Translations under genes and position numbers: made by a program
Notes under the pieces: generated by a model
What the model was told of the DNA's origin: nothing
What the model saw: only the letters and a program-made list of their open reading frames with translations
Databases searched by the model: none
Assembly: GCA_963810095.1 (NCBI GenBank)
Contig: CAWEMM010000012.1
Span: 128,001-192,000 of the forward strand
DNA length: 64,000 nucleotides
DNA from: an uncultured Chloroflexia bacterium
GTDB taxonomy: Bacteria; Chloroflexota; Anaerolineae; CG2-30-64-16
Direction of reading: 5' to 3'
Part shown: in pieces, positions 984-29,258 of the stretch
Numbering within the stretch: position 1 is the stretch's first letter
How the letters are laid out: every line of letters begins with the position of its first letter

Positions 984-992
984 CAGCTCACC

Positions 993-2620: not shown

Positions 2621-2670
2621 CTTAAGCTGACTTTAAGGTCGGCTACGCACTCGCTTAAGGCTTCCTCAAG
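2621..2670. promoter_or_regulatory. 11-bp-period YTTAAG direct-repeat array (putative OmpR-family operator)
   Basis: CTTAAG 2621, TTTAAG 2632, CTTAAG 2654, CTCAAG 2665; minus-strand TG-T-TATCGT -10 lies 11 nt downstream. Confidence 0.7.
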
Positions 2671-2683
2671 GTCGATCCCCTGG

Positions 2684-3100
2684 TTAGTGCGCTCCGTTCT
2701 CCGGAACAAGCTCATACGCCTCGGGCGAATCAGGACCCCCGGGCACCTCGTCCGCGCCCAACTGCTTGAACTCGTCGGCCAGTGCCTTTAGTTCCTCTTC
2801 CGGTCGTTCTTCGAGGTTGACCATATCGGTGCGCGCCTCCGACACCGCCCGGATCAGTTCGTCGATCTTCAGGTGCAGCGCCTTGGAGTCCCGGTTCTGC
2901 GACGCCTGGATGATAAAGACCATCAGAAATGTCACGACGCTCGTGCCGGTGTTGATCACCAGCTGCCACGTGTCTGAGAAGTGGAACAGCGGGCCGGTGA
3001 TGAGCCACACGACGAGCACGCCAATTGCCGCTATGAACGCCCAGGGCGAACCGACGACGTCTGCGGCCCGGCGTGAGAACTTACGAAAGTACTCGTTCAC
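2684..3100 (-). CDS. Low-affinity iron permease (Fet4-like) family protein
   Basis: GSPWAF..WLITGPLFHFSDTWQLVINTGTSVVTFLMVFIIQASQNRDSKALHLKIDELIRA family signature; GTG start at 3100. Confidence 0.85.
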   Translation of the reverse strand: MNEYFRKFSRRAADVVGSPWAFIAAIGVLVVWLITGPLFHFSDTWQLVINTGTSVVTFLMVFIIQASQNRDSKALHLKIDELIRAVSEARTDMVNLEERPEEELKALADEFKQLGADEVPGGPDSPEAYELVPENGAH

Positions 3101-4388
3101 CCTCGGCCTCTTCCACCTGATCGAACGGCGGCACGGTATCAGCCCGAAGCTGGGGCGCGTACTCGTAGCGCTCCGCGGGCGGCGTTCGTGCCGGGCGTGC
3201 ACGACCTGTGCTCGCGTTATCGGGCTTGGCCTGGAAGACCAGGCCGGCGAGTCCCACGCCCAGCATCGTGATCGCCTTCGGGATGAGCCGCAGCGCCAAC
3301 CCAAGCGGCGTGGCGGGGATGCGCTCGGAGCCGAGTTGATTTGCGTTGGCCTCTGCAGGCTCACGCAGCCTGTCGACGAGGCCGGCCTGGAGCTGCAGGA
3401 TGCCGCGCTCCACCAGCAACTTCTCGCGGAACAGCACGTCCCATTCCTCGTGCTGCACCTCCGCCGAACGGAGGTCGCGCTCGATGGTTTTCAGCCGCTG
3501 AACCAGGTCGGAATTGGCGTTCGCCGGCGTACGCTTCTTGGCATCTTTCCAGAGCGCGCGCAGCCGGTCCTCCAGCTCGTTGGCCTCTTTCGTCCACGTC
3601 AGGTACGCCTTGGAGAAAGACAGCTGCTCGACGACGATCGCGCGGGCGTGCGCTGCATCGTACTTCCGGCCGCTGATCGCCAGGTCCGACGGGTAGAGGA
3701 TCAGTTCGAGCTTGTTCGAGCGCAGCGTCGTGAGCTGGTCGGCAACCAGGTTGGACTGACCCTGGCCCGCCACTACGGTTAGCACCTTGATCGGCAGCCG
3801 CATCAGGATACTCGCCTGCGTCCGCGTGACCGGCAGGTCCGCTTTGTCGAGCGCCCGCTCGATCTCGCTCACCATCGAGAGGTAATCCGGCTCTTCGACT
3901 ACAATGGGCAGATGCTCGGTGGTCCAGCGCTTGGCCAGCGTCCGCACCTTAAGGAGCGGAACAAACACCACCATCATGAGCAGGGCCAGCGAGGTCGCGA
4001 CCGTGTACGGGTAACCGTGCAGGATGCGCTGGAAGATCGCCTTGCCGCCCTTCGGCTGGTCTTCCTTGGCGGTCACCTTTGTCGCCAGGAAACCCATTAT
4101 CGCCGGCAGAACCAATGCGATGGCCAGCATAGCCAGTCGAATCCACCAATCCTGCACGAAGGATGGCAGCTTGACGAAGCTGAGCAGAAACACCCCAACC
4201 TTTGGGACGATAACGCCAAACACCACGACAATCCAGATGACCGACCCAAACGCGATCACCGACAGGAGTGTCTGCCGCTCCTGCGGCACCTTACCGAACA
4301 GGGTCGTCGTGGCCCAGCTAAAGATCGTATTCAACAGCCGCCCGACCTGCCGGCCGAGGGCTGCGAAAAGCGCCTGAAGAATCGCCAT
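3081..4388 (-). CDS. Hypothetical membrane protein (3-4 TM plus soluble domain)
   Basis: GGAGAG RBS before ATG 4388; hydrophobic helices; overlaps next gene start. Confidence 0.7.
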   Translation of the reverse strand: MAILQALFAALGRQVGRLLNTIFSWATTTLFGKVPQERQTLLSVIAFGSVIWIVVVFGVIVPKVGVFLLSFVKLPSFVQDWWIRLAMLAIALVLPAIMGFLATKVTAKEDQPKGGKAIFQRILHGYPYTVATSLALLMMVVFVPLLKVRTLAKRWTTEHLPIVVEEPDYLSMVSEIERALDKADLPVTRTQASILMRLPIKVLTVVAGQGQSNLVADQLTTLRSNKLELILYPSDLAISGRKYDAAHARAIVVEQLSFSKAYLTWTKEANELEDRLRALWKDAKKRTPANANSDLVQRLKTIERDLRSAEVQHEEWDVLFREKLLVERGILQLQAGLVDRLREPAEANANQLGSERIPATPLGLALRLIPKAITMLGVGLAGLVFQAKPDNASTGRARPARTPPAERYEYAPQLRADTVPPFDQVEEAEGERVLS

Positions 4389-4443
4389 AATTGTCTCTCC
4401 CCCGCGCCCCTCCGCCTGTGGCTGCAGGAGGAGGGGCCAGGAA

Positions 4444-5916
4444 TTACGCGCGCACCATGGAGCGCCGGTAGCGCCACCACGAGAACACAAACAACACCAA
4501 GCCCATCACACCCAGCGCCACCAGGAAGATCCACGGCGGCGGCACGCCCTTCAGCATCACGTTCTGCAAGCTGATGATGCCGTAGGTGACCGGTAGCAGG
4601 TACCCGATGTAGCGAACCGGTACCAGAATCTGCATCAGCGGAAACACGAACCCGCTGAAGAACATGGACGCCAACAGGACCAGCATCGAAGCCTGGACGG
4701 CCTGACTGTCGGTGCCCGATGTGGCCGAGATGGCAAAGCCGTATCCCAGCGACGCAAAGATCAGCAGCAGCAGCGAAGCGACGAGCCAGGCCACCGTGCC
4801 CAAAAGCGGCACGCCGAGGATGTAGATCGCCGACGCGGTCAGGATGGCCGCCAGGACGCCGACGAACAGCAGGTACGAGCCATACTTCCCCAGCATGATC
4901 TCGAACGCGGTGATCGGCGCCACCCGGAACAACTCGAGCGCACCGAACACCTTCTCACGCACCAGGGCGAGCGACGCGATGCTGATCGCCACGTGCTGCA
5001 AGATCAAGGCCAGCACGCCCGGCGCATAGAAAATCACGAATGCGGGCGTGAACGGTGCGATGCTCTTCGTCACGGTAGTCAGCGGCGACACCATCACGTC
5101 GGGCGGCACATTCTCAAAGTCCGCCAATTGTTTGTCCATGCGATCCAGGTCGCTGCTCACCGCCTGAGCCCGGGTATCGACCGAAGACTGGTCGTTCGCC
5201 CCCGCGGGCGCAGCGGCCGGGCTTTGAACCGGGCCTGCACCCAAGCCCTGACCCATACCGCCCATGATCAGCGCCGTCGCACCCAGCAGCGCAGTGGCCT
5301 GGTCCAGCGAGCTATTGGCCCGCGCCAGTTCCTCCTGCGCACGGGCATTATCGCCGGCAGCCGCGGCCGAACGAGCGCTGTCGGCCGCCGACCGCGCCTG
5401 GGCCAGGTTACCCTTGGCGTCGCCGCTCTGCTGCTTGGCCTCGGCCGCAAACTGCATCAGGATGCGGCGGTTAATCTCGGCCACGTAGACGCGGCCGAGC
5501 TGGTCCACGTACGCCGCCTGCGTCGGGTCGATCTCGTTGTGATACAGCTCGAGGGTCGCCTGCGAGCCATTCTTGACCGTCTGGTACGCATGTGGCGGAT
5601 AGACCACGACCAGGTCAACCTGGCCGATGCGCAGCCGCTGCAGGGCCTCGTCCTTGCTGACCGTCTGGCCCATGTACTGGAGCTGCGGCCCAAGGTCGGT
5701 CGCGTACTGCTCCACCTGCGGCGCGACTTGCGGCTCGTCCGCGGGAACCACGAAGAGCGCGCGCATCACCCGGGCCTGGTTGTTGAAGCCCAGCCCAACG
5801 AGCAGCAGGATCAGGAACGGGCCGAGAATCAGCCGGACAACCAGCCAGGGTTGGCGCAGGATCTCGCGGATTTCCTTGCCGAGAAATGAAGAGACTCGGA
5901 CGATCGGCTTAAGCAC
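4444..5916 (-). CDS. ABC-2 type exporter permease
   Basis: KEIREILR, REKVFGALE, LGKYG, FFSG..P motifs; extracellular domain with coiled-coil insert; GGAGG before GTG overlapping the ATPase stop. Confidence 0.85.
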   Translation of the reverse strand: MLKPIVRVSSFLGKEIREILRQPWLVVRLILGPFLILLLVGLGFNNQARVMRALFVVPADEPQVAPQVEQYATDLGPQLQYMGQTVSKDEALQRLRIGQVDLVVVYPPHAYQTVKNGSQATLELYHNEIDPTQAAYVDQLGRVYVAEINRRILMQFAAEAKQQSGDAKGNLAQARSAADSARSAAAAGDNARAQEELARANSSLDQATALLGATALIMGGMGQGLGAGPVQSPAAAPAGANDQSSVDTRAQAVSSDLDRMDKQLADFENVPPDVMVSPLTTVTKSIAPFTPAFVIFYAPGVLALILQHVAISIASLALVREKVFGALELFRVAPITAFEIMLGKYGSYLLFVGVLAAILTASAIYILGVPLLGTVAWLVASLLLLIFASLGYGFAISATSGTDSQAVQASMLVLLASMFFSGFVFPLMQILVPVRYIGYLLPVTYGIISLQNVMLKGVPPPWIFLVALGVMGLVLFVFSWWRYRRSMVRA

Positions 5917-6988
5917 GGCGCGCCTCCAACTCCTGGCCCTCGACCTCGGCCTGCGACTTTTCCAGCAAACGCACAAAGACCTCGTCGAAGGTGGGCCGGT
6001 ACTGCTCGATCCCCTCAACCTCCAGGTTCTCCCCCCGCATCAGGTCGAGAATCGCGGGCATGGCCGTCGAGGCGTCCTCGACGACGAGCCGGGCGCGGCC
6101 GGGGATGCTCGTATCGATCGACTGCACGCCGTTCACACGGCCAAACAGCGGACGCGTGGCGTGGCCGATTTGCGCAGAACGCACTTCGACGATTTCGCCG
6201 CCGAACGCGTCGCACCGCAGGTTCTCGGGCGTGTCGATGGCGATGATCCGGCCGTGCCCGATCACAGCCACCTGGTCGCAGTACTCGGCTTCGGTAACGT
6301 ACTGTGTCGTCACGAACAAGGTGCGGCCTTCGCCTTTGAGCCGGTGGAACGCCTCCCAGAACTTGGCGCGCAAGATGGGATCGATGCCCGCGGTGGGCTC
6401 GTCCAGGAAGATCAGGCGCGGGTTATGGATCAGCGACGAGGCCAGCGCCAGCCGCCGCTGCATCCCGCCCGAAATGTCGCGTGCGAGCTTGCCCCGGTGA
6501 TCCCAGAGCTCGACGAAGTCGAGCACCTCCCGGCGACGTTTGCCGCGGTGAAACCAGCTCATACCGTAGAGCGAGGCGGAGAAGTCGATGTTCTCCTTGA
6601 CGGACAGGTTGGGGTACAGGATGAACAGCTGCGGCAGGTAGCCGATACTCTCGCGCACCCGGCTGCTCATGTGGCCGGCGGGCTGGCCAAAGATCTGCAC
6701 GCTCCCGCTGGTCGGCTGATAAGTCCCGTTCATCAGGCGGATGGTCGTCGTCTTCCCGCTGCCCGACGGCCCGATGAAGCCGAAGATCTCGCCCTCGTGA
6801 ACGTTGAAGGTCAAATCCTGGACCGCGACCGAATCGGCAAAGCTCTTTGTTGCGTTCTGCATCTCGATGACTCGGCGCCGAGCTGCCGTGCTAGGCACAC
6901 TCGTGGGCGCGCCCGCAGGCGGTGCGGGCACTGGTTGTGGCGCCCGCGGCGCGGCGGGTTGCCCAGGTGCTTGGTTAGGTCCTTGCAT
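5909..6988 (-). CDS. ABC transporter ATP-binding protein
   Basis: Walker A GPSGSGKTT, signature ISGGMQRR, Walker B IFLDEPT. Confidence 0.95.
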   Translation of the reverse strand: MQGPNQAPGQPAAPRAPQPVPAPPAGAPTSVPSTAARRRVIEMQNATKSFADSVAVQDLTFNVHEGEIFGFIGPSGSGKTTTIRLMNGTYQPTSGSVQIFGQPAGHMSSRVRESIGYLPQLFILYPNLSVKENIDFSASLYGMSWFHRGKRRREVLDFVELWDHRGKLARDISGGMQRRLALASSLIHNPRLIFLDEPTAGIDPILRAKFWEAFHRLKGEGRTLFVTTQYVTEAEYCDQVAVIGHGRIIAIDTPENLRCDAFGGEIVEVRSAQIGHATRPLFGRVNGVQSIDTSIPGRARLVVEDASTAMPAILDLMRGENLEVEGIEQYRPTFDEVFVRLLEKSQAEVEGQELEARRA

Positions 6989-7006
6989 TCGTACTTCCTG
7001 CGCTGC

Positions 7007-7840
7007 TTAGCGCTTGAGCCCGTCGGGCACGCCATTCGGGTATAACTTGTCGATCGCCTGCTGGATGTTTTGGATGCGATTCCCGGGGTCCGGGTGCGTG
7101 CTCATGAACTCGGCGGGCCGCGGTCCCGAGTTGGCCTGCTCCAGAATCGTCATCACGTCGATCATACTGCGCGGGTCGTAGCCGGCCTGCGCCATGTATT
7201 TCACGCCGAAGGTGTCGGCTTGGGTCTCGTCCGTGCGGCTGAACTTCAGGTTCACCATCTGGTTCACCAGCATGGCAAACTGGGCATTGCGGTACGTCCG
7301 TGGGTCGTTTGGATCGACGGCAGCAATGACCGCTGCGCCGGTGAGGCCCTGTGTCAGCTGGCTCTTCGCCAACTGCTCGGCCGAGTGGCGCAGGATAACG
7401 TGCGAGGTCTCGTGTGCCAGGACGCCGGCAAGCTGGCCCTCGGTCTGCAGGTGCGACAACAACCCTTCGGTGATGAAGACCTGGCCGCCCGGGAGGGCGA
7501 ACGCGTTGATCGTCTCGGGGTCGGCCAGCAGGTGATACTCAAACTGATACGGCCCCTTGGCCGCATCGCTGTTCTCCCAAATCTTGTTGCCCACCTGTGC
7601 GACGAGCGCCGTCGCTTTCTGGTTGGAGGATAGACCCCCGTATTGCGCTTCCATCTCTGGCGCAGCCTGCAGCCCCATCGCGGTTTCCTGCTCCGGCGAC
7701 ATATTTACGTGCTGCGTCTGGCCCGTAACGGGGTTAACCTGGCTGGACCCGAAGTAGCCAATCAGCGCGATGACAATCATGATTACCGCGATGATCAGGC
7801 GACCCCCGCCGAACGAGCGCCGTCCAACATTTCCGAACAT
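7007..7840 (-). CDS. M48 family metallopeptidase
   Basis: INAFALPGG, HETSH (HExxH), SRTDETQAD, STHP; N-terminal TM. Confidence 0.93.
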   Translation of the reverse strand: MFGNVGRRSFGGGRLIIAVIMIVIALIGYFGSSQVNPVTGQTQHVNMSPEQETAMGLQAAPEMEAQYGGLSSNQKATALVAQVGNKIWENSDAAKGPYQFEYHLLADPETINAFALPGGQVFITEGLLSHLQTEGQLAGVLAHETSHVILRHSAEQLAKSQLTQGLTGAAVIAAVDPNDPRTYRNAQFAMLVNQMVNLKFSRTDETQADTFGVKYMAQAGYDPRSMIDVMTILEQANSGPRPAEFMSTHPDPGNRIQNIQQAIDKLYPNGVPDGLKR

Positions 7841-7980
7841 GCTTACTTCCTCTCACTCACAACACACAAACTAACTCAATACACGCTCTGACGCGATTAA
7901 ACGCAGCCGGCAAGACGGCTGTTCCGATTCACGGGCCGGCCCCTCTCCCCTTCCACGCACGCGCCCGGAACATCGAGCAC

Positions 7981-8758
7981 TTAGCCCTGCAGCAGCGACT
8001 GCGCACCGTCGATCCAGATCTCGGTGCCCGAGATGTGGCTGGACGCGTCCGAGAACAAGAACTTGACAAGCTCGGCCACCTGCTCGGGCCGCCCGGGCGC
8101 ACCCTTCGTGAGCGGCACGGGTCCCTCCGGGTACTCGGCCAGTTTCGGCTCGCCCTCGAGCTTGCTTTTGTCGGTAGACTCCTCGATGTTGGTCGTAATC
8201 CAGCCGGGGCAGATGACGTTCACGCGGATCTTGTCCTGGCCCAGCTCGAGCGCAAGCATCTTCGCCAGGGCCACCTGGCCGGCCTTTGTCGTCGCGTAGG
8301 CAGATGCGCCCACGTTGCTGAACATGCGGGTGCCGTTGACCGACGACGTGATCACAATGCTGCCGCCCTGCTTGCGCAGGTGGGGTACCGCGTAGTGAAC
8401 CGTCAGGTACGTCCCCTTCAGGTTGACATCCATGACCTGATCCCATTCGTCCACGGTAATCTGGTCGATTGGCGCCCAGGTCCCGTTGATGCCCGCGTTC
8501 GCGAAGACCATGTCCAGCCGCCCCCAGCGCTCCAGCGCCTGGCGAATCGCGGCCTCCACGTCTTGCGGCTCTGAGACGTCGCACACGATCACCAAAGCCT
8601 CGCCGCCGGCACCGCCGGATGCCTTGCTCCACCTCTCGCAACTCCGCTTCGTCGCGGCTGACCAGCGCGACGCGCACGCCTTCGCGTGCCAACAATTCGG
8701 CGGCCGCCCGGCCAAGGCCCGAGCCCGCGCCCGTGATGAATGCTACTTTACCCTTCAT
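7981..8758 (-). CDS. SDR oxidoreductase (one frameshift near 8620)
   Basis: MKGKVAFITGAGSGLG joins ANAGING, YATTK, ICPGWI in the second frame. Confidence 0.85.
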
Positions 8759-8861
8759 TGGCTCCATCCCTTTGCGTTTGAGTAGACCCTCTTTCGGGAC
8801 CTGTCTGGCGCTTGGCCGCACCAGCGATTCTTGCACTCTAAATGTAGCCCGCGCATACGTC

Positions 8862-8900
8862 TTTACGGCCATCTCATACCGACCTTAAGGTGGGCTTAAA
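8862..8900. promoter_or_regulatory. 11-bp-period YTTAAG array
   Basis: TTTACG 8862, CTCATA 8873, CTTAAG 8884, CTTAAA 8895; shares ACCGACCTTAAGG.G.GCTTAA with the 11329-11350 site. Confidence 0.65.
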
Positions 8901-8964
8901 GACCGATGTGGTTCGAGGGGCCGCAAGCTATAATGACAGGGTGCAAGAATGGACGGATACAGGC

Positions 8965-10865
8965 ATGAGGGAAGCGGTCGAAGTGGGAAATAAGACTCGC
9001 AAGCAGTTGCTCGAAGAGCTTGCCGCGGCGCAGAGCCGCCTTAACGAACTCGAGGCGTTCGAGGATACCCCGAATCGCGTCGAGAACCGGGCCCCCGGGG
9101 GAGAGAGCCACTTTGCGCACCTCTTCCGTGACGCCCGGGTGGCCAACCTGCTGTTTGATCCACTCGGCAACCTGGTGTCTGCAAACGCGGGCAACGGTAT
9201 GCTGAGCGCGGGCGAATACCAGCGGGCCGTCCGCGAAAGTCTGTTCGAGAGCGCCGCCTGGACGCCGGAGATACGCAGCCGGCTGGCAAACGGGGAGGTG
9301 CTGCGGTTGCGCATCACCGTCGATCTGGGCGGGGGTCAGAACGGCGATCTGCAGGGTCGAACCGCCCCGAAAGGCGTGGCGCACCTCGAATCCACCGTGT
9401 CTTCGCTGGGCATGCAAGGCTACCTGGTGCAGGTACAAGACATCACGCAGGAGGTCGAGTCGAAGGCTGCGCTGCGCGAGCGCGAGACGTTCTTCCGCTC
9501 GGTCTTCCAGGCCATCCCTTCCCCGACAATCGTGTGGCGCCACGCCGGCAACAACCACTTCGTCCTGCACTTCTACAACACGTCGGCCAACCTTGCGACG
9601 GACGCGCATCTCGGCGAGTACGAAGGCGCGGACTTGGACCGCTTTTACGCACACGAGCCGGAGTTTGCGGCGCGTGTCCGCCGCACGTTCGAGACCGGGC
9701 GAAGCGGTGACCGTCGAGCAGGAGTACGTCTTCCGGACCACCGGCAAGAAACGCTACATCCGCGTTACCAGCGCTAAAGTCGGCCGGGAGTACGTGATCG
9801 ACTCGGTCACGGACCTGACCGAGCTCAAGGAGACCCAGGAGGCTCTCGTCGAGAACGAAGCGCGCTTCCGGCGCTTGCTCGACAACGCACCGGATATCGT
9901 GTATCGCATTGCCCTGCAGCCCGAACCGCACTACGAGTACATCAGTCCGGCCGCCGAGGCCGTGACAGGCTTCACCCCAGATGAGCTGATGTCGGACCTC
10001 ACCCTGGCCGGCGAGCGGGTCTATCCGGAGGACCGCCGGGAACCGCCGCCGAACGTGGAGGCGCTGCCTCCGGTGGGTGCGCCACAGCTGTTTCGCTGGA
10101 TCCGCAAGGACGGGCAGGTCGTCTGGCTCGAGCACCGCTACGTTGTGGTGTATGAGGACGGCGTGCCGGTGGCGCTGGAGGGGATCGGCCGGGAGGTGAG
10201 CGCCGAGGTCGAGGCCCGCCGTGTGCTCGAGCGGTCGCTGACCGAGAAGCAACTCCTGCTCCAGGAAGTCCACCACCGGGTGAAAAACAACTTAAGCATC
10301 CTGAGCAGCCTGATCGAGCTGCAGGCTGCCACACTGACCGAGCCGAAGCTGCGGGAGATCCTGCGCGACACGCAAGGGCGCATCCTGTCGGTGGCGCGTG
10401 TCCACGAGGCGCTGTACAGCTCGGGCGACAGCACGACACACATCGACCTTGCGGAATACGTGAGCCGGCTCGGCGCAGAGCTGCGCGATGCGTACGGCGG
10501 GCAAGGCACGGAGATAGACTACGAGATGGTGCACTACGCGCTGTCGCAGCAGCGGGCCATCCACTTTGGCCTCCTGGTCAACGAGCTGATCTCGAATGCG
10601 CTGAAGCATGCCTTCCCCGCCGAGCGTACCCGCCCGGCCCGCGTCGAGGTCTGCATGCGGGAGGTCGATGACCGGTTGAGCTTGGTCGTGCAGGACAACG
10701 GCGTGGGATTGCCAGACATCCTTCGACCCTCGCGCGACCGGCTCGCTGGGCGTGCAGGTGATCGACATGCTCGTGGACCAGATGGATGGCAAGGTCGAGT
10801 ACGTCTCGCGGCCGGGCGCGGGCACCGAGGTTCGGGTCCTCATTCCAAAGTCGCAGCTGAACTAA
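8965..10865 (+). CDS. Multi-PAS sensor histidine kinase, HisKA_2 type (frameshifts near 9700 and 10715)
   Basis: Three PAS-like segments; H-box EVHHRVKNNL; NELISNALKHAF; DNGVG; the frame-shifted tail gives GSLGVQVIDMLVDQMDG..GTEVRV. Confidence 0.85.
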
Positions 10866-10879
10866 CCGGTGCCAAAAAT

Positions 10880-10921
10880 GCCCTGGGCTCACCTGCGACC
10901 CTTCGCAGGTGAGCCCAGGGC
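10880..10921. terminator. Perfect 19-bp stem hairpin between convergent genes
   Basis: GCCCTGGGCTCACCTGCGA-CCCT-TCGCAGGTGAGCCCAGGGC; second hairpin at about 10940-10970. Confidence 0.6.
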
Positions 10922-10991
10922 GTTCTCCGTACTTTGCTGCGCACCTGTGCGCTGGCACGGCACAGGTGCGTGACTGGATCTGCCTGTTCAA

Positions 10992-11249
10992 TCAGGCATA
11001 GGCTGCGATTAACCGCCATCGCCGGGTCGCGGGGTCCTGCCGGTACTTGGACCGGACGGCAGCCCACGCCGAGCGGCTCACGGCCTCCTCAATGGCGGCC
11101 GGACCGGCCAAGGCAGCGGGAGAGTCGGCATATCGCTCCCAAGCTGCGTTGAATGCTTCGCGATAGATTTCCTGGGCCCGCAGGGGCAGCCATGTTCTCA
11201 AGGAAATCGGCAGCATCTGCAGGCTCTCATAAGGTCCCAAACCGGGCAT
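10992..11249 (-). CDS. chaB: ChaB family protein
   Basis: PY..LP..LP.RAQEIYREAFNAAW..AWAAVRSKY..W signature; GGAGG RBS. Confidence 0.85.
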   Translation of the reverse strand: MPGLGPYESLQMLPISLRTWLPLRAQEIYREAFNAAWERYADSPAALAGPAAIEEAVSRSAWAAVRSKYRQDPATRRWRLIAAYA

Positions 11250-11312
11250 CTTTGCCCTCCTCGAATGATCGGCCTTTTGCACCCATCATAGCCTCTCGTG
11301 TGACAAAAGGTC

Positions 11313-11384
11313 TTTAACCGGCACTAAAACCGACCTTAAGGCGAGCTTAAGGCCGGTCTGATCTGTAAGGTAGACAAGATTAAG
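11313..11384. promoter_or_regulatory. 11-bp-period YTTAAG array between chaB and the OmpR-family gene
   Basis: TTTAAC 11313, CTAAAA 11324, CTTAAG 11335, CTTAAG 11346, ATTAAG 11379; minus-strand TATGAT 22 nt away; plus-strand TGCTATCCT at 11398. Confidence 0.7.
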
Positions 11385-11450
11385 CAAACACGGAAGATGC
11401 TATCCTGGAACTATACGCGCACCAGTCAGTTTGGAGCAGAGACGAAAGAC

Positions 11451-12194
11451 ATGAGCACGCATTTGATTGTGGTCGACGATGAAGCCCTTCTACGGCGCAG
11501 CCTGGTCTATAATCTGGAGCAGGCGGGCTATCGAGTCAGTTCGGCGAGCCGGGCAGAGGACGCCCTTGCGCTCGCGCGGCGCGATCCACCCGACCTGGTC
11601 CTCCTCGACATCGGTCTGCCTGGCATGGACGGGCTGCAGGCCCTGCGGGTTTTCCGCCAGGAAGTGGGCTGCCCCGTGATTTTCGTGACCGCCCGGCGTC
11701 GCGAGTTGGACGAGCAGCTGGGGCTGGAGCTGGGGGCCGACGACTATGTGACGAAGCCCTTTGATTTTGGCGTACTGCTTGCCCGTGTCAAGGCCGTGCT
11801 GCGCCGGGGCCAGCTGAGCCGGCCGGCCGGCCAGAGCGCAGACGCCCCGAGCAACCCGACGCTGCGCGTGGGCGACCTGTCGATTAATCCCTCCGCAGTC
11901 GAAGTGATGCTGAAGGATCGCTCGCTCCAGCTGTCACCCCGTGAGTTTGACCTGCTCCACGTGCTGGCACTCAATGCGGGCAAGGTGCTGTCGGTCGAGG
12001 ACATCCTGGCGCAAGTCTGGGGCGCAGAGTACCTGGGTGAACCGCAGGTCGTCTACGTGCACATCCGGTGGCTGCGCGAAAAAATCGAGGATGAGCCCAG
12101 CCGGCCAACCCGCGTTCTCACCGTACGCGGCAAGGGGTATAAGCTCGTCGATCCCCAGGAAGAGGCGATTGTTACCACTCCTGCGAATCCTTAA
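11451..12194 (+). CDS. OmpR/PhoB family response regulator
   Basis: VVDDE, LLDIGLP, VTAR, GADDYVTKPF; winged helix VYVHIRWLREKIE..TVRGKGY. Confidence 0.95.
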   Translation: MSTHLIVVDDEALLRRSLVYNLEQAGYRVSSASRAEDALALARRDPPDLVLLDIGLPGMDGLQALRVFRQEVGCPVIFVTARRRELDEQLGLELGADDYVTKPFDFGVLLARVKAVLRRGQLSRPAGQSADAPSNPTLRVGDLSINPSAVEVMLKDRSLQLSPREFDLLHVLALNAGKVLSVEDILAQVWGAEYLGEPQVVYVHIRWLREKIEDEPSRPTRVLTVRGKGYKLVDPQEEAIVTTPANP

Positions 12195-12228
12195 GCTAGG
12201 CTTAAAGTCACTGACAACTCGCGTTAAG
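12190..12228. promoter_or_regulatory. 11-bp-period YTTAAG array
   Basis: CTTAAG 12190, CTTAAA 12201, GTTAAG 12223; TATGAT at 12251, 22 nt downstream. Confidence 0.65.
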
Positions 12229-12289
12229 GCCCGGCAGACCCGCCCAGGCGTATGATCGTGCTCGCCAGTCTAGTATCGCGAGAACCAGA

Positions 12290-13180
12290 ATGAATCTGAC
12301 GACGCATAGGTATGCCGGAGTGAGCCAGCCACAACAGAAAGAGATCAGCGAGGAGTTGCTGACCCGCCTCATCCACAGGATGGCGCGAAGCACCGGTGCG
12401 TTCCGATCGACCGCACAAGCGCTTCTTAATGGGGCCGACGAGGACCCCGTGCTTCGCCGCGAACTCCTTCACGATATGGAGTTCGAGCTCGGCGAGCTGC
12501 AGCGAATGCTGGAGAACGTGACGCAGTTCAAGGCGCTAGAAAAAGGTACCTTCGTTCTGAGCCGGCGCGAGGTGCTGACTGCAGCGTGGCTGCGGCAGCT
12601 TGTGGGTCGCTGGCAGCGTGCGGTGCCCGACAAAGCCCTCGCCTGGATCGTCGAAATACCCGACAATTTGCCGGTCTTCCGCGTCGACGTCGACAAGCTC
12701 GAGCAGGCCTTGGGCAACCTGCTGGGCAATGCCGTAAAGCACACGCTGCCGGGTGCACCGGTCGCATTCAGGGCATGGTCGAGCGGCGGCAACCTCAGGC
12801 TTCGTATTGCGAGCGGCCGGCCGCGACTGGTGGACGAGGAATATGATCGCCTGTCCGAGTTGTTCTACACCGGTGGAGTGCAGGGCCGCTTCCCCACGGG
12901 CGTCGGCCTAGGTCTGTATGTCACCCGGCAGCTGATCGAAAAGCACGGCGGCCTGCTCGTCGTGACTCGCCCGACGGTCGAAGACGATGCCATCGGATTT
13001 GAGGTAAGCGTCCCGGCTGCGTTCGACGGCAACGGGTACAACGGGCTGGGTAGGCCGGAAGACGGCGCGCAAAGCACCCGCACCCCGAGCAACGGCTCGC
13101 AAAGCGACGACGAACAAAACACGATCATCGAGCGCGATTTCGGCGGCCAGAGCGAACGGCAGCATACCAAAACGTCATAA
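12290..13180 (+). CDS. Sensor-less, degenerate histidine kinase-like protein
   Basis: DHp-like helices with IHRMARST; N-box NLLGNAVKH; G2 GVGLGL; G1 DxGxG replaced by ASGRP; no TM or sensor domain. Confidence 0.75.
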   Translation: MNLTTHRYAGVSQPQQKEISEELLTRLIHRMARSTGAFRSTAQALLNGADEDPVLRRELLHDMEFELGELQRMLENVTQFKALEKGTFVLSRREVLTAAWLRQLVGRWQRAVPDKALAWIVEIPDNLPVFRVDVDKLEQALGNLLGNAVKHTLPGAPVAFRAWSSGGNLRLRIASGRPRLVDEEYDRLSELFYTGGVQGRFPTGVGLGLYVTRQLIEKHGGLLVVTRPTVEDDAIGFEVSVPAAFDGNGYNGLGRPEDGAQSTRTPSNGSQSDDEQNTIIERDFGGQSERQHTKTS

Positions 13181-13231
13181 GCGCAGGGGCCCAGCCGCCG
13201 GCGGCGGCAAGCGGGCTCGTAGCGAAGAAAT

Positions 13232-13284
13232 CAGGACCTCCGGCGGCAGGACAGGCGAAAATGCCCTGTGGCCCGGAGGTCCTG
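13232..13284. terminator. Hairpin between convergent genes (CAGGACCTCCGG..CCGGAGGTCCTG)
   Basis: 12-bp inverted repeat with an inner stem, followed by TTTGTT; same GACCTCCGG arm as 36303-36344. Confidence 0.55.
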
Positions 13285-13308
13285 TTTGTTGTCGGTCGGC
13301 CTCTGGGC

Positions 13309-13593
13309 CTAAATCCTGCGGTAGCGGGGCCGGGCAACCAGTCCCACGAGCAGCGCGATAATCAACGCGCCGACGATGGACCAGACCACGGGAAATGGTT
13401 CGCCCGCCACGTTAAGCGTCAGCAGTTCCGGCAGGCCCAGTTGGCGTGCCAGCCAACTGCCGAACAGCGCGCCGAGGAACCCCAGCACGAGCGAAGCAAG
13501 AAAGCCTCCTAGCGAATAGCCCGCCAGCGCCTGCCCAATCGCGCCGGCGACCGCCGCAATGATCGCCAGTAAAATGATTTGAATGAGCGTCAT
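13309..13593 (-). CDS. GlsB/YeaQ/YmgE (transglycosylase-associated) stress membrane protein
   Basis: Small Gly-rich 3-TM protein: GFLASLVLGFLGALFGSWL..SIVGALII. Confidence 0.85.
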   Translation of the reverse strand: MTLIQIILLAIIAAVAGAIGQALAGYSLGGFLASLVLGFLGALFGSWLARQLGLPELLTLNVAGEPFPVVWSIVGALIIALLVGLVARPRYRRI

Positions 13594-13686
13594 GCTGCGC
13601 ACCCCTTTCCACGGACCGGCAGCCTGCTGCGCCTGCCCGTCGGTTCTTCTGACGCTCACTCATATCACCCCACGTCCCCACCGGTC

Positions 13687-13725
13687 CTTAAGCGGACTTC
13701 AAGCGCCGTTCAAGGCCGCGTTAAG
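13687..13725. promoter_or_regulatory. 11-bp-period YTTAAG array upstream of the GlsB/YmgE gene
   Basis: CTTAAG 13687, TTCAAG 13698, TTCAAG 13709, GTTAAG 13720. Confidence 0.7.
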
Positions 13726-16760: not shown

Positions 16761-16897
16761 GGTTCTGCTTTCACGAACTGGCGGAAAGGTTAGCGCTACA
16801 AGACCCCGGTCACATGAGTCACGCGTTGCCACGCGGCCCGGACAAACGGAAGACAGGATCGATCACACCGCCAAATAGCGGGAGTCGCGCGGGTCGC

Positions 16898-17287: not shown

Positions 17288-17556
17288 CTCTGTCTCCACC
17301 CAACACAATAATCTCGGCTGCCTGCTCCCGTACCCCCCGGCTAACCATCTCGAAGCATGTTAACACAACAACGACGCCCCGTCATCGGCCCGGCGACTGT
17401 ACATCAACAAGACTTGCGTCCCGCTTCCTTAACGGATTTGTAGTCCTTATGACGTATTGACGAATGAGCCGGCATAAGATACCAATATGCGTATGTTTCC
17501 TATCATAGGCGTTTTGTCTCCCCTTCATTATATGCACGATATGCACGAGGATTCAG

Positions 17557-20500
17557 ATGCGTACTAACAATAGCGAGTCGGCCTTACGCGTTACGCTGCT
17601 GTTCGCCGTAATGCTCATCGGCGCCGACCTTTTGATGGATATCGTCATTTCGAACCTGCGGCTCGATCAGAATGCTGCGCTGTGGTTGATGGTCTTTGTC
17701 GACTTTCTCCTTGGCATCGCCTATCTCGCGTACCTTTACTTTGTCGTGCGGCGCCAGCTGGAGGTGCGGGCGGCCGCAGAAAGCGAGCGAAGTATCGCAG
17801 CGGACCGGCTCGGAGTTCTCCTGGATGTCGCGCCGGTGGCACTGGTCGGCGCCGACGCGGAGTTGCGGGTGACGTTGTGGAACCCAGCCGCAGAAAAGCT
17901 TTACGGCTGGTCTGCGGTCGAGGCGGTGGGCCGCCCGGTGTCAGACGTGCTGGGCTCAGAAGTGACTGCGGAGGAGCGTGAGCGTGCCCTGGCCACCGTG
18001 CATGCCGAGGGTGAATACGTCAAGGAGTTCGTCCACCACGACCGCAACGGCTCCGCGCTGACGGTACTGGGCGACACGATCGTGATCCGCGACCAGGCGG
18101 GTGCAATCACCGGCTACCTGAGCGCAAACCGCGATGTGACGGCCGAACGCCGAGTCGAGCGACGGCTGCAGGAGAGCGAGGCGCGCCTGCGGCTCATCAT
18201 GGACAACCTGCCGGCCGCCATTTCGCGCCTCGACCGCGAGCAGTGCTACACGTTCGTCAATGCCGGGTATGAGCGGCTGCTCGGCATCGACCCCGGACGA
18301 ATTATCGGCAAGAACTGGCGCGACGTCCTGCCGGGCGAGGCATACGAGGTCGGCCGCCCGCACCTGGAGGCAGCGCTGGCGGGCCAGACGCAAGTCTTCG
18401 AGAACCTGCTCCCGCGCCGCGGCGGCGGCACCCTCACCGCACAGGTCCAGTTTGTTCCCGAACGACAGGGCGACGAAGTGTGCGGCGTCCACGTGCTGCT
18501 CACCGATATCAGCGAATTGCGCGAGGCCCAGGCGGCCCTGGGGCGTGAGCACCGGGAAGCCGTCGCCCGTGCAGAAGAGATGGAAGCCGTGCTCGAAGCC
18601 GTGCCGGTCCCAATCTATATTGCACACGACCGCGAGTGCACGGTGATCACAGGCAACCGGCTTGCCGCGGAGACACTTGGCGCAGAGCCGGGCTCCAACC
18701 TGTCACGCAGCGCGCCAGACGGCGTTGGGCCGCGGCACACGGTTGAGGCCGCAGGCGTGGAGATTGAGAACGACGAGCTGCCGGTCCAGCGCGTGGGCCG
18801 GACCGGCGAGGCGGTCCGCAACTACGAGTTCGTCCTGACGCTGCCCGACGGGACGCGCCGCGACATGTTCGGCCATGCGGTTCCCTTGCTCGACACGGAC
18901 GGCCAGCCGCGGGGCGTGGTAGCCGCGTTCAGCGACGTGACCGCGCTGAAGCTGGCGGGTGAAGAGCTGCGGCAGAGCCGCGAACAGTTCAGGCGTATGG
19001 CCGAGCTGGCAGAAATGCGCCGCCTCGAGTGGCAGCTCCTGTTTGACAATATCAGCATTGGTGTCGCGCTCTACGACGCGCAGGGCAAGGCCCTGGCCGC
19101 AAACAGCCGGTTGCTCGAACAGCACGGGTTTGCCGACCTGGCCCAAATGGACACCCCCAGCGAAATGGCCGCTCGATTTGAGGTTCGCAGGCCCGACGGC
19201 TCCCCGGTCGCGCCCGATCGCTGGCCCTTGGCGCGTGCGATTGCGGGCGAGAAAGCCAGCGAGGAATACATCGTCCGGGTGCTGGATAGCGAAACCGTGA
19301 TGCACGCCCGGTACACCTGCGCCCCCATCCGTGACGCATCCGGACAGGTCATCCGCATCTTTCAGACGGTTGAAGATGTGACGGATCAGCGGGTAGCAGA
19401 GGCCGCGGCTAGCGCACATGCGTACGAACTGCAGACCTTGCTGGACGCGGTGCCCACGGCCATCTTCATCGCCCGCGACCCCGCCTGCGAGGTTATGGTT
19501 GGGAGCGACCTGACGTATCAGCTGCTGAGGCGGCCGAAGGGCAGTAACCTGTCAGAATCCGCGCCGCAGGATCAAAGGCCGGTGAGTTTCCGCGCACTGC
19601 ACGATGGCCGTGAGATCGACCCCGCCGAATTACCCGTACAAGTGGCTGCAGCCACCGGCAAAGCTGTTCGTAACTACGAGTTCGACTTTGCGTTTGAAGA
19701 CGGCGAGGTCGTCAGCATGATCGGCAACGCCGCCCCGCTCCTTGACGAGCAGGGCCGGTCCCGGGGTGCGATCGGCGCGTTCGCGGATGTGACTGCGCTC
19801 AAGCGGATCGAATCGGCGCTGCGCTCGAGCGAGTCCGTGGTGCGCCAGCAGCTGTCCGAAATCGAGGCCATGTACAACACGCTGCCGGTGGGGCTTGCCG
19901 TCCTGGACCCGGGGCTGCGCTACCGGCGCGTCAACGAACAGATGGCCGACATCAACGGCATTCCCGCGTCACAGCACCTGGGCAAGACGGTCCGGGAACT
20001 GCTGCCTCAACTTGCCGATTTCGGAGAGGCAACCGCTGCGCGGGTGCTCGAAAGCGGCGAACCCGTCATGGGCCTCGAAGTCAAGGGTGTCACCCCGGCG
20101 GACCCGTCGAGGGAGCATACCTGGGTCGAACACTGGGTGCCCTTCCTCGATCCGGGCGGCAAGATCGCCGGCATCAACATCGTCGTCGAGGATGTCACCG
20201 AGCAGCGCCGGGTGCAAGCCGATCTCCTGGAAAGCCAGGAATTGATGCACCGGGCGCTCGACGTCGGACGGGGCTTCGCCTTCCAGTACCGCATGCGCTC
20301 TGACCAGGTCATGCGCTCGCCCGAGTCGGCGGCAATCCTTGGGCTATCCGAAGGGCCCGCTGCGACCAGCGACACAGGCCCGGCTTACTTCCAGCGCGTC
20401 CATCCACAGGATCGCCAGCAGTACGTCGCGCGCATGCTGGGCCTGACGCCCGCGGCCGACACCTACCGCACGACCTACCGGATCGTTCGCCCGGACGGCC

Positions 20501-23085: not shown

Positions 23086-23091
23086 GGCAGT

Positions 23092-23754
23092 ATGTCGGAA
23101 GGTGAAACCATTCGAATCCTGATCGCGGATGACCATGCGATCGTGCGCGAGGGGCTGCGTGCGCTTATCGAGACCGAGCCCGGCATGGAACTTGTCGGCG
23201 AGGCCCAGGACGGCATCGAAGCCGTTCGCAAGCATCAGGCCCTCCACCCGGATGTCACCCTCCTTGACCTGGTGATGCCGCGCCAGGACGGGCTTGCCGC
23301 ACTGACCGAGATCCGGCAGAAGGAGCCCCAGGCCCGCATCCTCGTCCTTACCAGCTTTGCCGAGGACGAGCGGGTCTTCCCCGCGATTATGGCCGGCGCG
23401 CTGGGCTACCTCCTCAAAGACGCGACGCCCCAGGAACTGCTGAAGGCGATCCGGGACGTAGCCCGCGGCGAGGCGTCCTTGCACCCGGCCATTGCCCGCC
23501 GCGTCATCAAAGAACTGCACCGGCCGCAAGAATCCGGGCCGACGGTCGAGCCGCTGACTGAACGCGAGACGCAGGTGCTGAGCCTGGTGGCGCAGGGCCT
23601 GTCCAACCAGGAAATCGCGACGAAGCTGGTCATCAGCGAACGCACGGTGCGCACCCACGTCAGCAACATTCTGGGCAAGCTGCACCTGGCGAACCGCACG
23701 CAGGCCGCCCGGTACGCGCTCCGCGAGGGCCTGGCCAAACTCGACGGCGACTGA
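23092..23754 (+). CDS. NarL/LuxR family response regulator
   Basis: IADDH, LDLVMP, LTSF, YLLK; LTERETQVL..ISERTVRTHVSNIL. Confidence 0.95.
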   Translation: MSEGETIRILIADDHAIVREGLRALIETEPGMELVGEAQDGIEAVRKHQALHPDVTLLDLVMPRQDGLAALTEIRQKEPQARILVLTSFAEDERVFPAIMAGALGYLLKDATPQELLKAIRDVARGEASLHPAIARRVIKELHRPQESGPTVEPLTERETQVLSLVAQGLSNQEIATKLVISERTVRTHVSNILGKLHLANRTQAARYALREGLAKLDGD

Positions 23755-24840: not shown

Positions 24841-24877
24841 CGAGCGTCACGGTTCAACAGATTCCGTGTGCTTGAAC

Positions 24878-28374: not shown

Positions 28375-28424
28375 GGCCCGGGATTTCGCACACACCCCGG
28401 CTGTGCCAAGGGGCACAGGATGGA

Positions 28425-28463
28425 CTTAAGCACGAGTTAAGCTTCTCTACAGGAGGGGTTAAG
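28425..28463. promoter_or_regulatory. 11-bp-period YTTAAG array upstream of the HEAT gene
   Basis: CTTAAG 28425, GTTAAG 28436, CTACAG 28447, GTTAAG 28458; TGA-TAAGCT -10 21 nt downstream. Confidence 0.7.
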
Positions 28464-28667
28464 GACCCTCTCAGAATAGCGTGATAAGCTGTTGCCATCA
28501 GTTACAGAAACACAGACGACGGCGACACGGTGCGGCAGGCGGTAAGCGGAAGATGTAGGGCGGCGGAACTGCTGCATCATCACGAATGACGGCGACCGGG
28601 TCGCCGATGTGAGCGGACAGCCCGGATAGCAAGGGTCCGCTCACTATGAGTTTAACGGAGGTTTTCC

Positions 28668-29213
28668 GTGGATTACCAAACGCATGCGAGCTCCCAGCCC
28701 GACGATTCTCAGGCCGATCAGCAGCACATTCAGGATTTAGTGAAGGTCTTCATGAAGGGCAGCGGCCGTGAGCGGCAGGCTGCGCGCGAGCAGTTGTGTG
28801 AGATCGGCCACCCGGCGGTTCCGGCGCTTGTCGATGCACTTAACAATCCCGAAGACCAGGTCCGCTGGGAGGCCGCCAAGTCTCTCACGCAGATTCCCGA
28901 TCCCCGCGCCGCGCCGGCGCTGGTCGAGGCGATGAAGGACTCATTCAGCATCCGCTGGCTCGCCAGCGAGGCCCTGATCAATATCGGAGAGCCGGCGCTG
29001 GTGCCGCTCATTCGCGGGCTCCTTGCGAATCCGGATGCGCCCCGGCTGCGCGAGGGCGCGCATCACGTGCTCACCGGCCTTCGCCGCACCCACCCGAACA
29101 ATCCGTATATTACCGAAATGCTGAGCGCGCTGACGGGCCAGGCGCAGACCGAAACGGTGCCGTGGGTCGCGCGCGACATCCTGCAGAAGATGGGCCTTGT
29201 CGCTCCCATCTAA
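28668..29213 (+). CDS. HEAT-repeat (PBS lyase-like) protein
   Basis: AVPALVDALNNPEDQVRWEAAKSL / AAPALVEAMKDSFSIRWLASEAL repeats; GGAGG RBS. Confidence 0.85.
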   Translation: MDYQTHASSQPDDSQADQQHIQDLVKVFMKGSGRERQAAREQLCEIGHPAVPALVDALNNPEDQVRWEAAKSLTQIPDPRAAPALVEAMKDSFSIRWLASEALINIGEPALVPLIRGLLANPDAPRLREGAHHVLTGLRRTHPNNPYITEMLSALTGQAQTETVPWVARDILQKMGLVAPI

Positions 29214-29258
29214 GCGGCACTTAATGAAGGCTTAATGTCCTCTTGATCCCCTTGTAAG
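29209..29258. promoter_or_regulatory. 11-bp-period YTTAAG array upstream of the DoxX gene
   Basis: TCTAAG 29209, CTTAAT 29220, CTTAAT 29231, CTTGAT 29242, TGTAAG 29253; TATCAT -10 21 nt downstream. Confidence 0.7.

Follow-up and report, generated by a model that had tools for sequence, protein, structure and literature searches.

Helically phased CTTAAG-type arrays and a candidate OmpR/PhoB-family regulon in an uncultured Chloroflexia bacterium

A gene island with phased hexamer arrays

A stretch of 64,000 nucleotides from the genome of an uncultured Chloroflexia bacterium (contig CAWEMM010000012.1, positions 128,001 to 192,000; hereafter the window) contains seven arrays of CTTAAG-like hexamers, designated S1 to S7 (at 2621, 8862, 11313, 12190, 13687, 28425 and 29209). 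They lie among genes for an OmpR/PhoB-family response regulator, a PAS-PAS-HisKA_2 histidine kinase, a short histidine-kinase-like protein and a number of SDR, ChaB-domain, HEAT-repeat and small membrane proteins. The source genome (G000; 6.13 Mb in 16 contigs, 65% G+C, 88.5% complete, 4.8% contamination) was compared with the genomes of 40 screened relatives, which carry the other G-numbers. C-numbers denote contigs of G000 and L-numbers stretches of G000 or of relatives, while positions without a prefix refer to the window, which corresponds to C12:128001-192000.

Inspection of the sequence verified CTTAAG-like hexamers with an exact 11-bp period at all seven places at which an earlier note on this DNA had reported them, and every array is intergenic or overlaps a stop codon, as was also claimed there. 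The longer core CCGACCTTAAR-N4-GCTTAA, which had been attributed to three sites, was found at 2621 (minus strand), 8880 and 11331, and S5 consists of one exact box and three in-phase boxes scoring 4.5-5 of 6. The arrays are far beyond chance. YTTAAG has 29 strand matches in the window compared with a mean of 13.5 and a maximum of 28 in shuffled sequences, and none of 100 shuffles reached the observed number. Genome-wide, the pattern TTAAR-N6-TTAAR (period 11) yielded 16 strand matches, compared with 0-3 for each of the periods 5-10 and 12-20. These matches represent 10 distinct loci, seven of which fall inside C12:125401-157235 (window -2599 to 29235), namely one locus 2.6 kb upstream of the window and those at 2621, 8884, 11335, 12190, 28426 and 29220. 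CTTAAG itself occurs 378 times in the genome and 12 times in the 33-kb island, where 2.0 copies would be expected from the genome rate.

The repeat unit is asymmetric. An orientation search in the flanks of 31 hand-picked sites, with one register per array, revealed an A at position -2 in 23 sites and a G as the last base of the box in 25. Extra strong boxes around 30 oriented sites (seven in G000 and 23 in relatives) were present at offset -22 in 12 sites and at offset -11 in six, which amounts to 2.0 per in-phase offset compared with 0.13 per out-of-phase offset, and they occur on one side only. The restriction to period 11 and the directional flanks bear out the previous description of the arrays as operator-like direct repeats of the OmpR/PhoB type. 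When G000 was searched with a matrix derived solely from 23 sites in other genomes, 11 strand matches scored at least 20 bits (0.5 in shuffles) and 15 at least 18 bits (1.5 in shuffles); the top six matches, and seven of the top nine, lie inside the island. The arrays are also kept in relatives; a random distribution or a lack of conservation had been named in the earlier note as arguing against its reading. The regulon is essentially a local island with very few outside sites and is not genome-wide.

Promoter plan and predicted targets

The arrays share a plan that becomes apparent when they are read towards the target gene, with boxes numbered in this direction from the distal BOX1 to box4 nearest the -10 hexamer. 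The order is BOX1-N5-BOX2-N5-weak box3-N5-box4, followed after 21-22 nt by a -10 hexamer of the form TAnnnT (Table 1). In a hand-curated list of 32 promoter sites, which belong to about 12 promoter families and in which the strand of S1, S5 and the HtrA site was set after inspection, 26 sites have a box4 score of 4 of 6 or better, 21 have GAC directly after box4 and 26 have TAnnnT at a distance of 21-22 nt. The resulting nnGACn, 17-18 nt upstream of TAnnnT, is a weak -35 element overlapped by box4. A blind structured scan of G000 returned 20 arrays, seven of which have TAnnnT at 21-22 nt, while seven control pairs of offsets gave 0, 2, 1, 0, 1, 0 and 0 arrays with this hexamer. The seven fits are S2, S3, S4, S6, S7, the HtrA promoter (C14:140757) and C12:18764 beside a third paralogous regulator. 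Judged by these -10 hexamers, the promoters are of the sigma-70 type and not those of a dedicated alternative sigma factor. Further genome matches outside the island lie at C10:230267, C9:83162 and C12:431126. An array at C6:1848312 adjoins a DUF1360 gene and is too near the called start codon for judgement, and C6:368677 was rejected as a canonical site as box4 is absent.

The distance of 21-22 nt to the -10 hexamer had been noted before and holds once the arrays are read towards the target strand. The shorter distance of 11 nt that had been given for S1 counts from an extra fifth box in the spacer; the TATCGT hexamer of S1 is located 22 nt after box4 and 11 nt after this extra box. S2 and S3 do not fit a reading in which every array faces the plus-strand genes listed in the earlier note; their canonical -10 hexamers are on the minus strand and face the SDR operon and the ChaB gene, respectively. 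S3 had been assigned to the regulator gene and is instead built towards ChaB, with the regulator gene lying divergently on its BOX1 side. The same arrangement recurs throughout, as the operon of HisKA_2 kinase and regulator, or a lone regulator gene, is always divergent and on the BOX1 side of an array. Candidates for a promoter of the regulator gene itself are a conserved TAAGGT/TAAGGA 14 nt after BOX1 and a TAnnnT hexamer at 11401-11406, and the HisKA_2 kinase has a TATAAT of its own at 8929-8934, 28 nt past the S2 array. Autoregulation of the system, as formerly proposed, is uncertain. The array by the regulator gene faces ChaB, and both the regulator and the HisKA_2 kinase genes lie on the BOX1 side of divergent regions. 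A canonical array (S4) does precede the gene for the short kinase-like protein, and its plan was also found in G002, G003, G004, G007 and G010.

Table 1. Arrays, promoters, genes and predicted targets of the island (window coordinates; the last column gives the genomes in which an array was found at the target)
Feature	Position	Strand	Details	Array found in
S1 promoter	2604..2670	minus	BOX1 CTTGAG 2665-2670, BOX2 CTTAAG 2654-2659, weak box3, box4 CTTAAA 2632-2637, extra fifth box CTTAAG 2621-2626; -10 TATCGT 2604-2609 preceded by TGt	
S1 target operon	116..2523	minus	four genes from S1 leftwards	coiled-coil protein plus amylase: G000, G002, G003
Coiled-coil protein	2023-2523	minus	S1 operon; 166 aa, C-terminal membrane helix	
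G/D/E/R-rich hydrophilin	1401-1988	minus	S1 operon	
124-aa protein	993-1367	minus	S1 operon	
SDR	116-895	minus	S1 operon; best NCBIfam match PRK06701, 403 bits, cutoff 413	
S2 promoter	8835..8900	minus	BOX1 TTTAAG 8895-8900, BOX2 CTTAAG 8884-8889, box3 8873-8878, box4 CGTAAA 8862-8867 then GAC; -10 TAGAGT 8835-8840 (21 nt); kept in G004, G007	
S2 target operon	2684..8872	minus	six genes from S2 leftwards	SDR-M48-ABC or ABC operon: G000, G002, G003, G004, G007
SDR, frameshifted in assembly	7871-8872 / 7981-8715	minus	S2 operon	
M48 peptidase	7007-7840	minus	S2 operon	
DrrA-like ABC ATPase	5909-6988	minus	S2 operon	
ABC-2 permease	4444-6018	minus	S2 operon	
469-aa protein	3081-4490	minus	S2 operon	
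Low-affinity iron permease	about 2684-3100	minus	S2 operon	
PAS-PAS-HisKA_2 (HWE-type) histidine kinase	8965..10912	plus	two frames: 8965-9777, 9593-10912	
ChaB-domain protein	10992..11282	minus	likely start ATG 11249, giving 85 aa; orthologues in G004, G007 83 aa	G000, G004, G007
S3 promoter towards ChaB	11285..11351	minus	BOX1 CTTAAG 11346-11351, BOX2 CTTAAG 11335-11340, box3 TTTTAG 11324-11329, box4 GTTAAA 11313-11318 then GAC; -10 TATGAT 11285-11290 (22 nt)	
OmpR/PhoB-family response regulator	11451..12194	plus	receiver and Trans_reg_C; candidate array binder	
S4 promoter	12190..12256	plus	CTTAAG 12190, CTTAAA 12201, gap, GTTAAG 12223-12228; -10 TATGAT 12251-12256 (22 nt)	
Short soluble histidine-kinase-like protein	12290..13180	plus	DHp helix, invariant His29, N box, GLGL	G000, G002, G003, G004, G007, G010
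YmgE/GlsB-type (Transgly_assoc) small membrane protein	13309..13593	minus	S5 target	G000 only
S5 promoter	13659..13725	minus	CTTAAC 13720-13725, CTTGAA, CTTGAA, CTTAAG 13687-13692 then GAC; -10 TATGAG 13659-13664 (22 nt)	
S6 promoter	28425..28490	plus	CTTAAG 28425, GTTAAG 28436, weak box, GTTAAG 28458-28463 then GAC; -10 TAAGCT 28485-28490 (21 nt); kept in G004, G007	
HEAT-repeat protein	28668-29213	plus	S6 target, after 5' leader about 28497-28667	G000, G004, G007
S7 promoter	29209..29285	plus	TCTAAG 29209, CTTAAT 29220, CTTAAT 29231, CTTGAT 29242, TGTAAG 29253-29258; -10 TATCAT 29280-29285 (21 nt)	
DoxX/DoxD membrane protein	29372-30001	plus	S7 target	G000; related array and -10 in G004
M1 peptidase	30010-31869	plus	after DoxX/DoxD	
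HtrA			predicted target outside the window	G000
YflT-domain protein and BNR/sortilin-like protein			predicted targets in a relative	G024
BON protein			beside paralogue-type pair	G012

Pfam matches corroborated the previous naming of ChaB, YmgE (Transgly_assoc), HEAT, DoxX and the SDRs as downstream genes, a list from which the HisKA_2 kinase beside 8862-8900 was missing. The label ElaB/YqjD-like for the first gene of the S1 operon (2023-2523) found no support in Pfam or NCBIfam; language-model comparisons pointed only weakly, at 0.85-0.88, to LEA, DUF883 and CsbD clusters. Neither this protein nor those encoded at 1401-1988 and 993-1367 has a Pfam match (E up to 1) or an NCBIfam match, and the protein atlas returned nothing for 993-1367 and only leads below 0.9 for 2023-2523. 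The operon continues outside the window into a CBM48/alpha-amylase gene (TreZ/GlgB-like), the G003 orthologue of which has TreZ and GlgB as its best models, both below cutoff. Of the gene content typical of SigB/RpoS-type stress regulons, ChaB, Transgly_assoc and SDR proteins are present, as are YflT and BON proteins in relatives, with ElaB/DUF883 unconfirmed. Several genes are split between two reading frames, namely the SDR at 7871-8872, the HisKA_2 kinase and the alpha-amylase (L001:12444-14565), which may be due to indel errors of the assembly or reflect real pseudogenes. Contigs from four DNA runs on 7800-13300 are short and shallow and leave the frameshifts of SDR and kinase unsettled; one public contig (depth 2.5) lacks one base at 10718 in the C-terminal part of the kinase, a weak hint of an indel error. 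A search for RNA runs that contain positions 8000-14000 gave none.

Two predicted targets lie outside the previously listed loci, HtrA and an extracytoplasmic function (ECF) sigma factor. The operon of the latter lies just upstream of the window in G000, in the order array, open reading frame of 52 codons, DHH gene and sigma gene. A predicted array precedes the operon in G000, G002, G003 and G007, and none was seen on the single 20.6-kb contig of G004 that was searched. As the next gene after the sigma gene, G002 and G003 have a Zn-ADH, G007 has a DUF2243 membrane protein and G000 has an acetate-kinase fragment. As the sigma factor is a conserved target, the notion of a sigma-independent response is only half right: the -10 hexamers are indeed of the sigma-70 type, while an ECF sigma gene has a canonical array in G000 and its orthologues have one in three relatives. 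A conserved inverted repeat, GACGCCAC(A/G)AGC ... GCTTGTGGCGTC, brackets the -10 hexamer of the sigma promoter in four genomes (L001:12320-12365, which is C12:125320-125365 and about 2.6 kb upstream of the window; L053:3830-3880; L054:9790-9840; L060:5100-5150) and is possibly bound by a further regulator of the sigma gene, one that acts as a dimer.

The 5' leader between S6 and the HEAT gene is highly conserved. It has a long stem (GGTGCAGCAGG / CTGCTGCATC) around an insertion that varies in length, and two hairpins come after this element. Among 37 family genomes searched, this leader RNA was found in G000, G004 and G007 only, with 0 compensatory pairs, too few sequences for a covariation test. 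A search of positions 1-32000 against Rfam gave no family at the gathering score.

The regulator, its kinases and their co-occurrence with the motif

The island regulator was assigned to its family by Pfam (Response_reg, 3e-27; Trans_reg_C, 2.6e-25), and an alignment of 12 regulators shows the residues of its phospho-acceptor pocket (D9, D10, D53, T80 and K102) to be nearly invariant. The protein reaches none of the NCBIfam equivalog cutoffs, with CseB as second-best match, and scores 178.9 bits with the PhoB model compared with 232.9 bits for a PhoB-like regulator on C9 (cutoff 296.2). The closest solved structure is RegX3, and the nearest named relatives are Anaerolineales, Anaerolineae and Chloroflexota metagenome-assembled genomes. 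All regulators found beside such arrays have the recognition helix GEPQVVYVHIRWLRE (PQVVYVHIRWLRE) in common, while the PhoB-like regulator of G000 has a different one, RTVDVHVRWLRE / GDSRTVDVHVRWLRE. Among the best 80 relatives from named genomes, only four carry the island-type helix, all of them from Chloroflexota metagenome-assembled genomes, and one of these (L107) has a site of 23.8 bits. Streptococcal CiaR is described as binding NTTAAG-N5-TTTAAG with the helix VVEVYVSKVRKKL (PMC3091779), which has the V-Y-V start in common with that of the island regulator.

The HisKA_2 kinase gene is co-oriented with and abuts the regulator gene in G024, G002 and G003; the two genes overlap by 4 bases in G024 (3495-3498) and are 12 nt apart in G002. 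The best NCBIfam match of this kinase is PhyK, with 118 bits against a cutoff of 750. Orthologues of the short kinase-like protein retain His29, the N box and GLGL, and in this genus the G1 (DxGxG) box of the ATP lid is degenerate (IASGRPRL here compared with NTGPGL in G024 and G010). The protein may be a phosphatase or a pseudokinase, and a role as induced feedback phosphatase is tentatively suggested in view of the canonical array in front of its gene.

Orthologues of the short kinase were detected in nine of the 40 relatives, with identities of 64% in G007 and G004, 49-50% in G002 and G003, 40-43% in G010 and G024, and 37-39% in G016, G012 and G037, the last three resembling more a paralogous pair of G000 at C6:658-660 kb. 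TTAAN-N6-TTAAN was present beside the kinase at all nine of these orthologous or paralogue-type loci and at only one of 10 loci of non-orthologous kinases, the single positive being of the GTTAAC type. This distribution agrees with the earlier choice of the local OmpR-type regulator as the best candidate binder. Members of the genus in which the pair is present gave more matches to the pattern, forward and reverse counted together, than to its reversed control (16/3 in G000, 11/6 in G002, 9/8 in G003, 11/9 in G004 and 10/6 in G007), whereas the ratios were 2/5, 0/6 and 3/11 in G001, G005 and G006, in which no orthologue of the short kinase was found at a completeness of 75-89%. Within the genus, the motif is enriched only where the regulator-kinase pair is present. 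In G002, G003, G004 and G024, the matches cluster within a few kb of that pair.

Two paralogous OmpR-type regulators are encoded at C6:657864-659721 and C12:17908-18764, and in-phase repeats were observed near both (CTTGGG/CTTAAC/CTCAAC on C6; CTTAAC/CTTTAC/GATAAG plus TATCCT at C12:18764). It would seem, accordingly, that G000 contains a small family of regulators whose operators are built on a TTAA core.

A candidate regulon, its alternatives and its relation to known systems

Taken together, the data make it probable that the arrays are the operators of the island OmpR/PhoB-family regulator, set on activator-dependent promoters of the sigma-70 type. The adjacent cytoplasmic PAS-HisKA_2 kinase would most likely phosphorylate the regulator, which would then bind the 11-bp units head-to-tail, with BOX1-BOX2 (CTTAAG-N5-CTTAAG) as the high-affinity dimer site at about -73 to -57. 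A second dimer would then be recruited cooperatively to the weak box3 and box4, at about -51 to -35, where box4 abuts the poor -35 element (nnGACn) 17-18 nt from the TAnnnT hexamer. The combination of a poor -35 with a TAnnnT -10 element leads to the proposal that these promoters are activator-dependent and read by the housekeeping sigma factor. The predicted regulon would comprise a conserved local set of about nine transcription units for protective, envelope and redox proteins, a second tier formed by the ECF sigma factor, and, at a distant place in the genome, HtrA. It would also contain the short kinase-like protein with its degenerate G1 box, which may serve as feedback phosphatase. A general stress response, as postulated in the earlier note, is plausible and unproven; the observation made there is confirmed and its interpretation partly supported.

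Several points weigh against this assignment. The orientation of the S1, S5 and HtrA arrays was picked after it had been seen which strand held the -10 hexamer, and the 32 curated sites are not independent, since they represent about 12 families of orthologous promoters. Co-occurrence of motif and regulator is confounded because both share the island and are gained or lost as one. Three of the four relatives with the island-type helix (67%, 58% and 58% identity) have no site of at least 12 bits in the flanks searched, which extended up to 6 kb on each side for L080 and less for L081 and L082, where contigs end. A paralogous regulator at C6:659 kb, 52.8% identical, has the same recognition helix. 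The frameshifted island genes mean that the system may be damaged here, unless the assembly contains indel errors.

The remaining points on this side come from the phosphate genes. The PhoB-like regulator at C9:422598-423266 adjoins a PhoR-like kinase, PhoU and pstSCAB, and the pstS promoter of G000 (C9:427440-427545, L078:7440-7545) holds CTTAAT, a weak box, CTTAAC, GATAAC and CTTAAG at an 11-bp period, followed after 11 nt by the -10 hexamer TATACT; this array upstream of pstSCAB is likely a Pho box array. G011 has GTTAAG-N5-CTTAAG in the interval from surE to phoU and CTTAAG-N5-GTTAAG ahead of a pstS-like gene. Recognition of such boxes by a PhoB-type regulator is therefore conceivable, and the island arrays could themselves be Pho boxes, or be shared with them, either with the C9 regulator as binder and the island as part of a phosphate-starvation regulon, or with cross-regulation by the C6 paralogue, which has the same helix. 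RegX3 as the closest structure would fit this alternative, as would cyanobacterial SphR, which binds at least three CTTAACCT units with 3-bp linkers (PMC1906773). We nevertheless consider it unlikely. The island targets include neither pst nor pho genes, the island-type matrix gives no match of at least 12 bits at the C9 Pho locus, and the last box is 21-22 nt from the -10 hexamer in the island compared with 11 nt at pstS. The helices also differ at their N-terminal, base-contacting end (PQVVY compared with SRTVD), and G001, G005 and G006 hold 0-3 strict pairs, counted without regard to their pst gene content.

Binding of the island regulator could also serve mainly repression, or have a dual effect, if the TAnnnT/nnGACn promoters were constitutive and occluded by the bound protein. 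Box4 does overlap the -35 position, the extra box of S1 lies in the spacer at about -29 to -24, and BOX1 is 14 nt upstream of the conserved TAAGGT/TAAGGA before the regulator gene. This is improbable, as the -35 elements are poor, with only GAC in common (21 of the 32 sites), and as the strongest boxes are distal (-73 to -57), the usual plan for activator sites in this family, of which those of OmpR and PhoB are examples. CiaR and PhoB sites upstream of the -10 element are described as activating (PMC3091779, PMC1906773). That another island regulator binds, for example one of the NarL/GerE type (13721-14422 or 23092-23754), or that the arrays are a duplicated promoter cassette without a dedicated regulator, is very improbable: the palindromic CTTAAG would allow a pair to be read as an inverted repeat and G002, G004 and G007 have NarL-type pairs next to the island, but the asymmetric flanks and one-sided extra boxes fit direct repeats, the arrays of G024, G010, G012, G016 and G037 stand beside an OmpR-type pair with no NarL-type gene among the annotated genes within 2.6 kb of the sites, and spacers and inter-box sequences differ too much between sites for copies of one cassette.

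Assignment of the arrays to the island regulator as activator allows a comparison with known systems. Judged from its operators, the format is that of an OmpR/PhoB-type activator regulon, closest to CiaR in operator sequence and to Pho boxes in unit format. With CiaRH it has in common a nearly identical hexamer, the same 11-bp direct-repeat spacing and an OmpR-family activator upstream of the -10 element. For CiaR, the G of the box is further described as critical (PMC3091779), G being the commonest last base here, and HtrA as a target (PMC10197876), as is predicted here. CiaR differs in using two boxes located 10 nt from the -10 element, compared with four units of which the last is 21-22 nt away. 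The regulators are not orthologous, the best streptococcal relative found having a WalR-type helix and 43% identity, and the kinases (PAS-HisKA_2 and a short kinase-like protein here), the phylum and the targets differ as well. Pho boxes of PhoB/SphR resemble the arrays in their tandem 8+3-bp units with a CTTAA core, in forming arrays of at least three units and in replacing or overlapping the -35 element; three CTTAACCT units with 3-bp linkers are given for cyanobacteria and two 8-bp units 10 bp from the -10 element for E. coli (PMC1906773). The island differs in its non-phosphate targets, in GG rather than CC at positions 6-7, in a last unit that is one helical turn further from the -10 element and in the presence of a separate PhoB-like regulator in G000. 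At ompF and ompC, OmpR occupies several tandem in-phase dimer sites, of which the distal ones are strong and the weaker proximal one abuts the -35 element. This hierarchical site plan is the same as that proposed for the island, while motif, organism and target set differ.

At the level of the circuit, the CseBC-SigE (ECF39) and AfsQ1/Q2-SigQ systems of Streptomyces are similar in that an OmpR-type two-component system controls transcription of an ECF sigma factor (PMC8999054), and CseB is the second-best match, below cutoff, of the island regulator. The sigma gene of the island lies outside the operon of the two-component genes; in addition, the island regulator is predicted to drive many sigma-70-type promoters directly. 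HWE/HisKA2 kinases are described as coordinating the alphaproteobacterial general stress response (PMC11580852). The island and this PhyR-NepR-EcfG response have in common a cytoplasmic PAS-HisKA_2 kinase, an ECF sigma factor and an output of small protective proteins. The output domain of the island regulator is a DNA-binding winged helix (Trans_reg_C), unlike the sigma-like anti-anti-sigma domain of PhyR, and its sigma factor is apparently controlled through transcription and not, as in the EcfG system, by partner switching; no NepR turned up, with no search aimed at it. From SigB and RpoS regulons the island is set apart by promoters of the sigma-70 type that are not read by a dedicated alternative sigma factor.

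It is tentatively suggested, as a possibility we regard with some doubt, that the locus embodies a new wiring, in which a cytoplasmic PAS-HisKA_2 (HWE-type) kinase would act on a DNA-binding OmpR-type regulator and the latter would, through four-unit CTTAAG arrays, directly activate about nine sigma-70 promoters without a -35 element, with an ECF sigma factor as second tier and a kinase-dead, histidine-kinase-like feedback phosphatase, as a general or desiccation-type stress response of Anaerolineae-type Chloroflexota. If true, this would be a functional analogue of alphaproteobacterial PhyR-EcfG assembled from different parts. In the literature, no description was found of a Chloroflexi Pho box, a Chloroflexi general-stress regulon or such a HisKA_2/OmpR/ECF circuit, and regulation in uncultured Anaerolineae-type Chloroflexota is almost unstudied. 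The locus offers a compact, testable regulon. Its precise operator and promoter rules, its candidate regulator, its pair of candidate kinases and its sigma second tier could all be rebuilt in vitro from synthetic DNA. It also provides a lead on OmpR-family specificity, as NTTAAG boxes are paired with a V-Y-V helix start in two phyla that are far apart. Confirmation would make it a reference regulon and a promoter model for the phylum, and would establish no new principle.

Two minor observations concern the island and its search pattern. The region 14346-23754 inside the island encodes two NarL-type regulators together with two large PAS/GAF HisKA_3 kinases of 828 and 1842 aa, the longer of which contains eight or more PAS domains, and no CTTAAG arrays precede the genes of this region. 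A match at C6:1322456 (TTAAGGTTACATTAAG) was dropped as a regulon site, as it is a different element. The sequence at C6:1322456-1322471 recurs in G001, G004 and G007, with near-copies in G002 and G003, and G001 is a genome in which no orthologue of the short kinase was found. Its neighbours are a MerR/B12-binding gene, which was judged CarH/LitR-like from its translation, on one side and a CRP-family-like gene on the other, and TTGACG-N17-TATAGT lies downstream of it. The element probably serves as operator for a repressor that depends on light or B12, and is probably unrelated to the island regulon.

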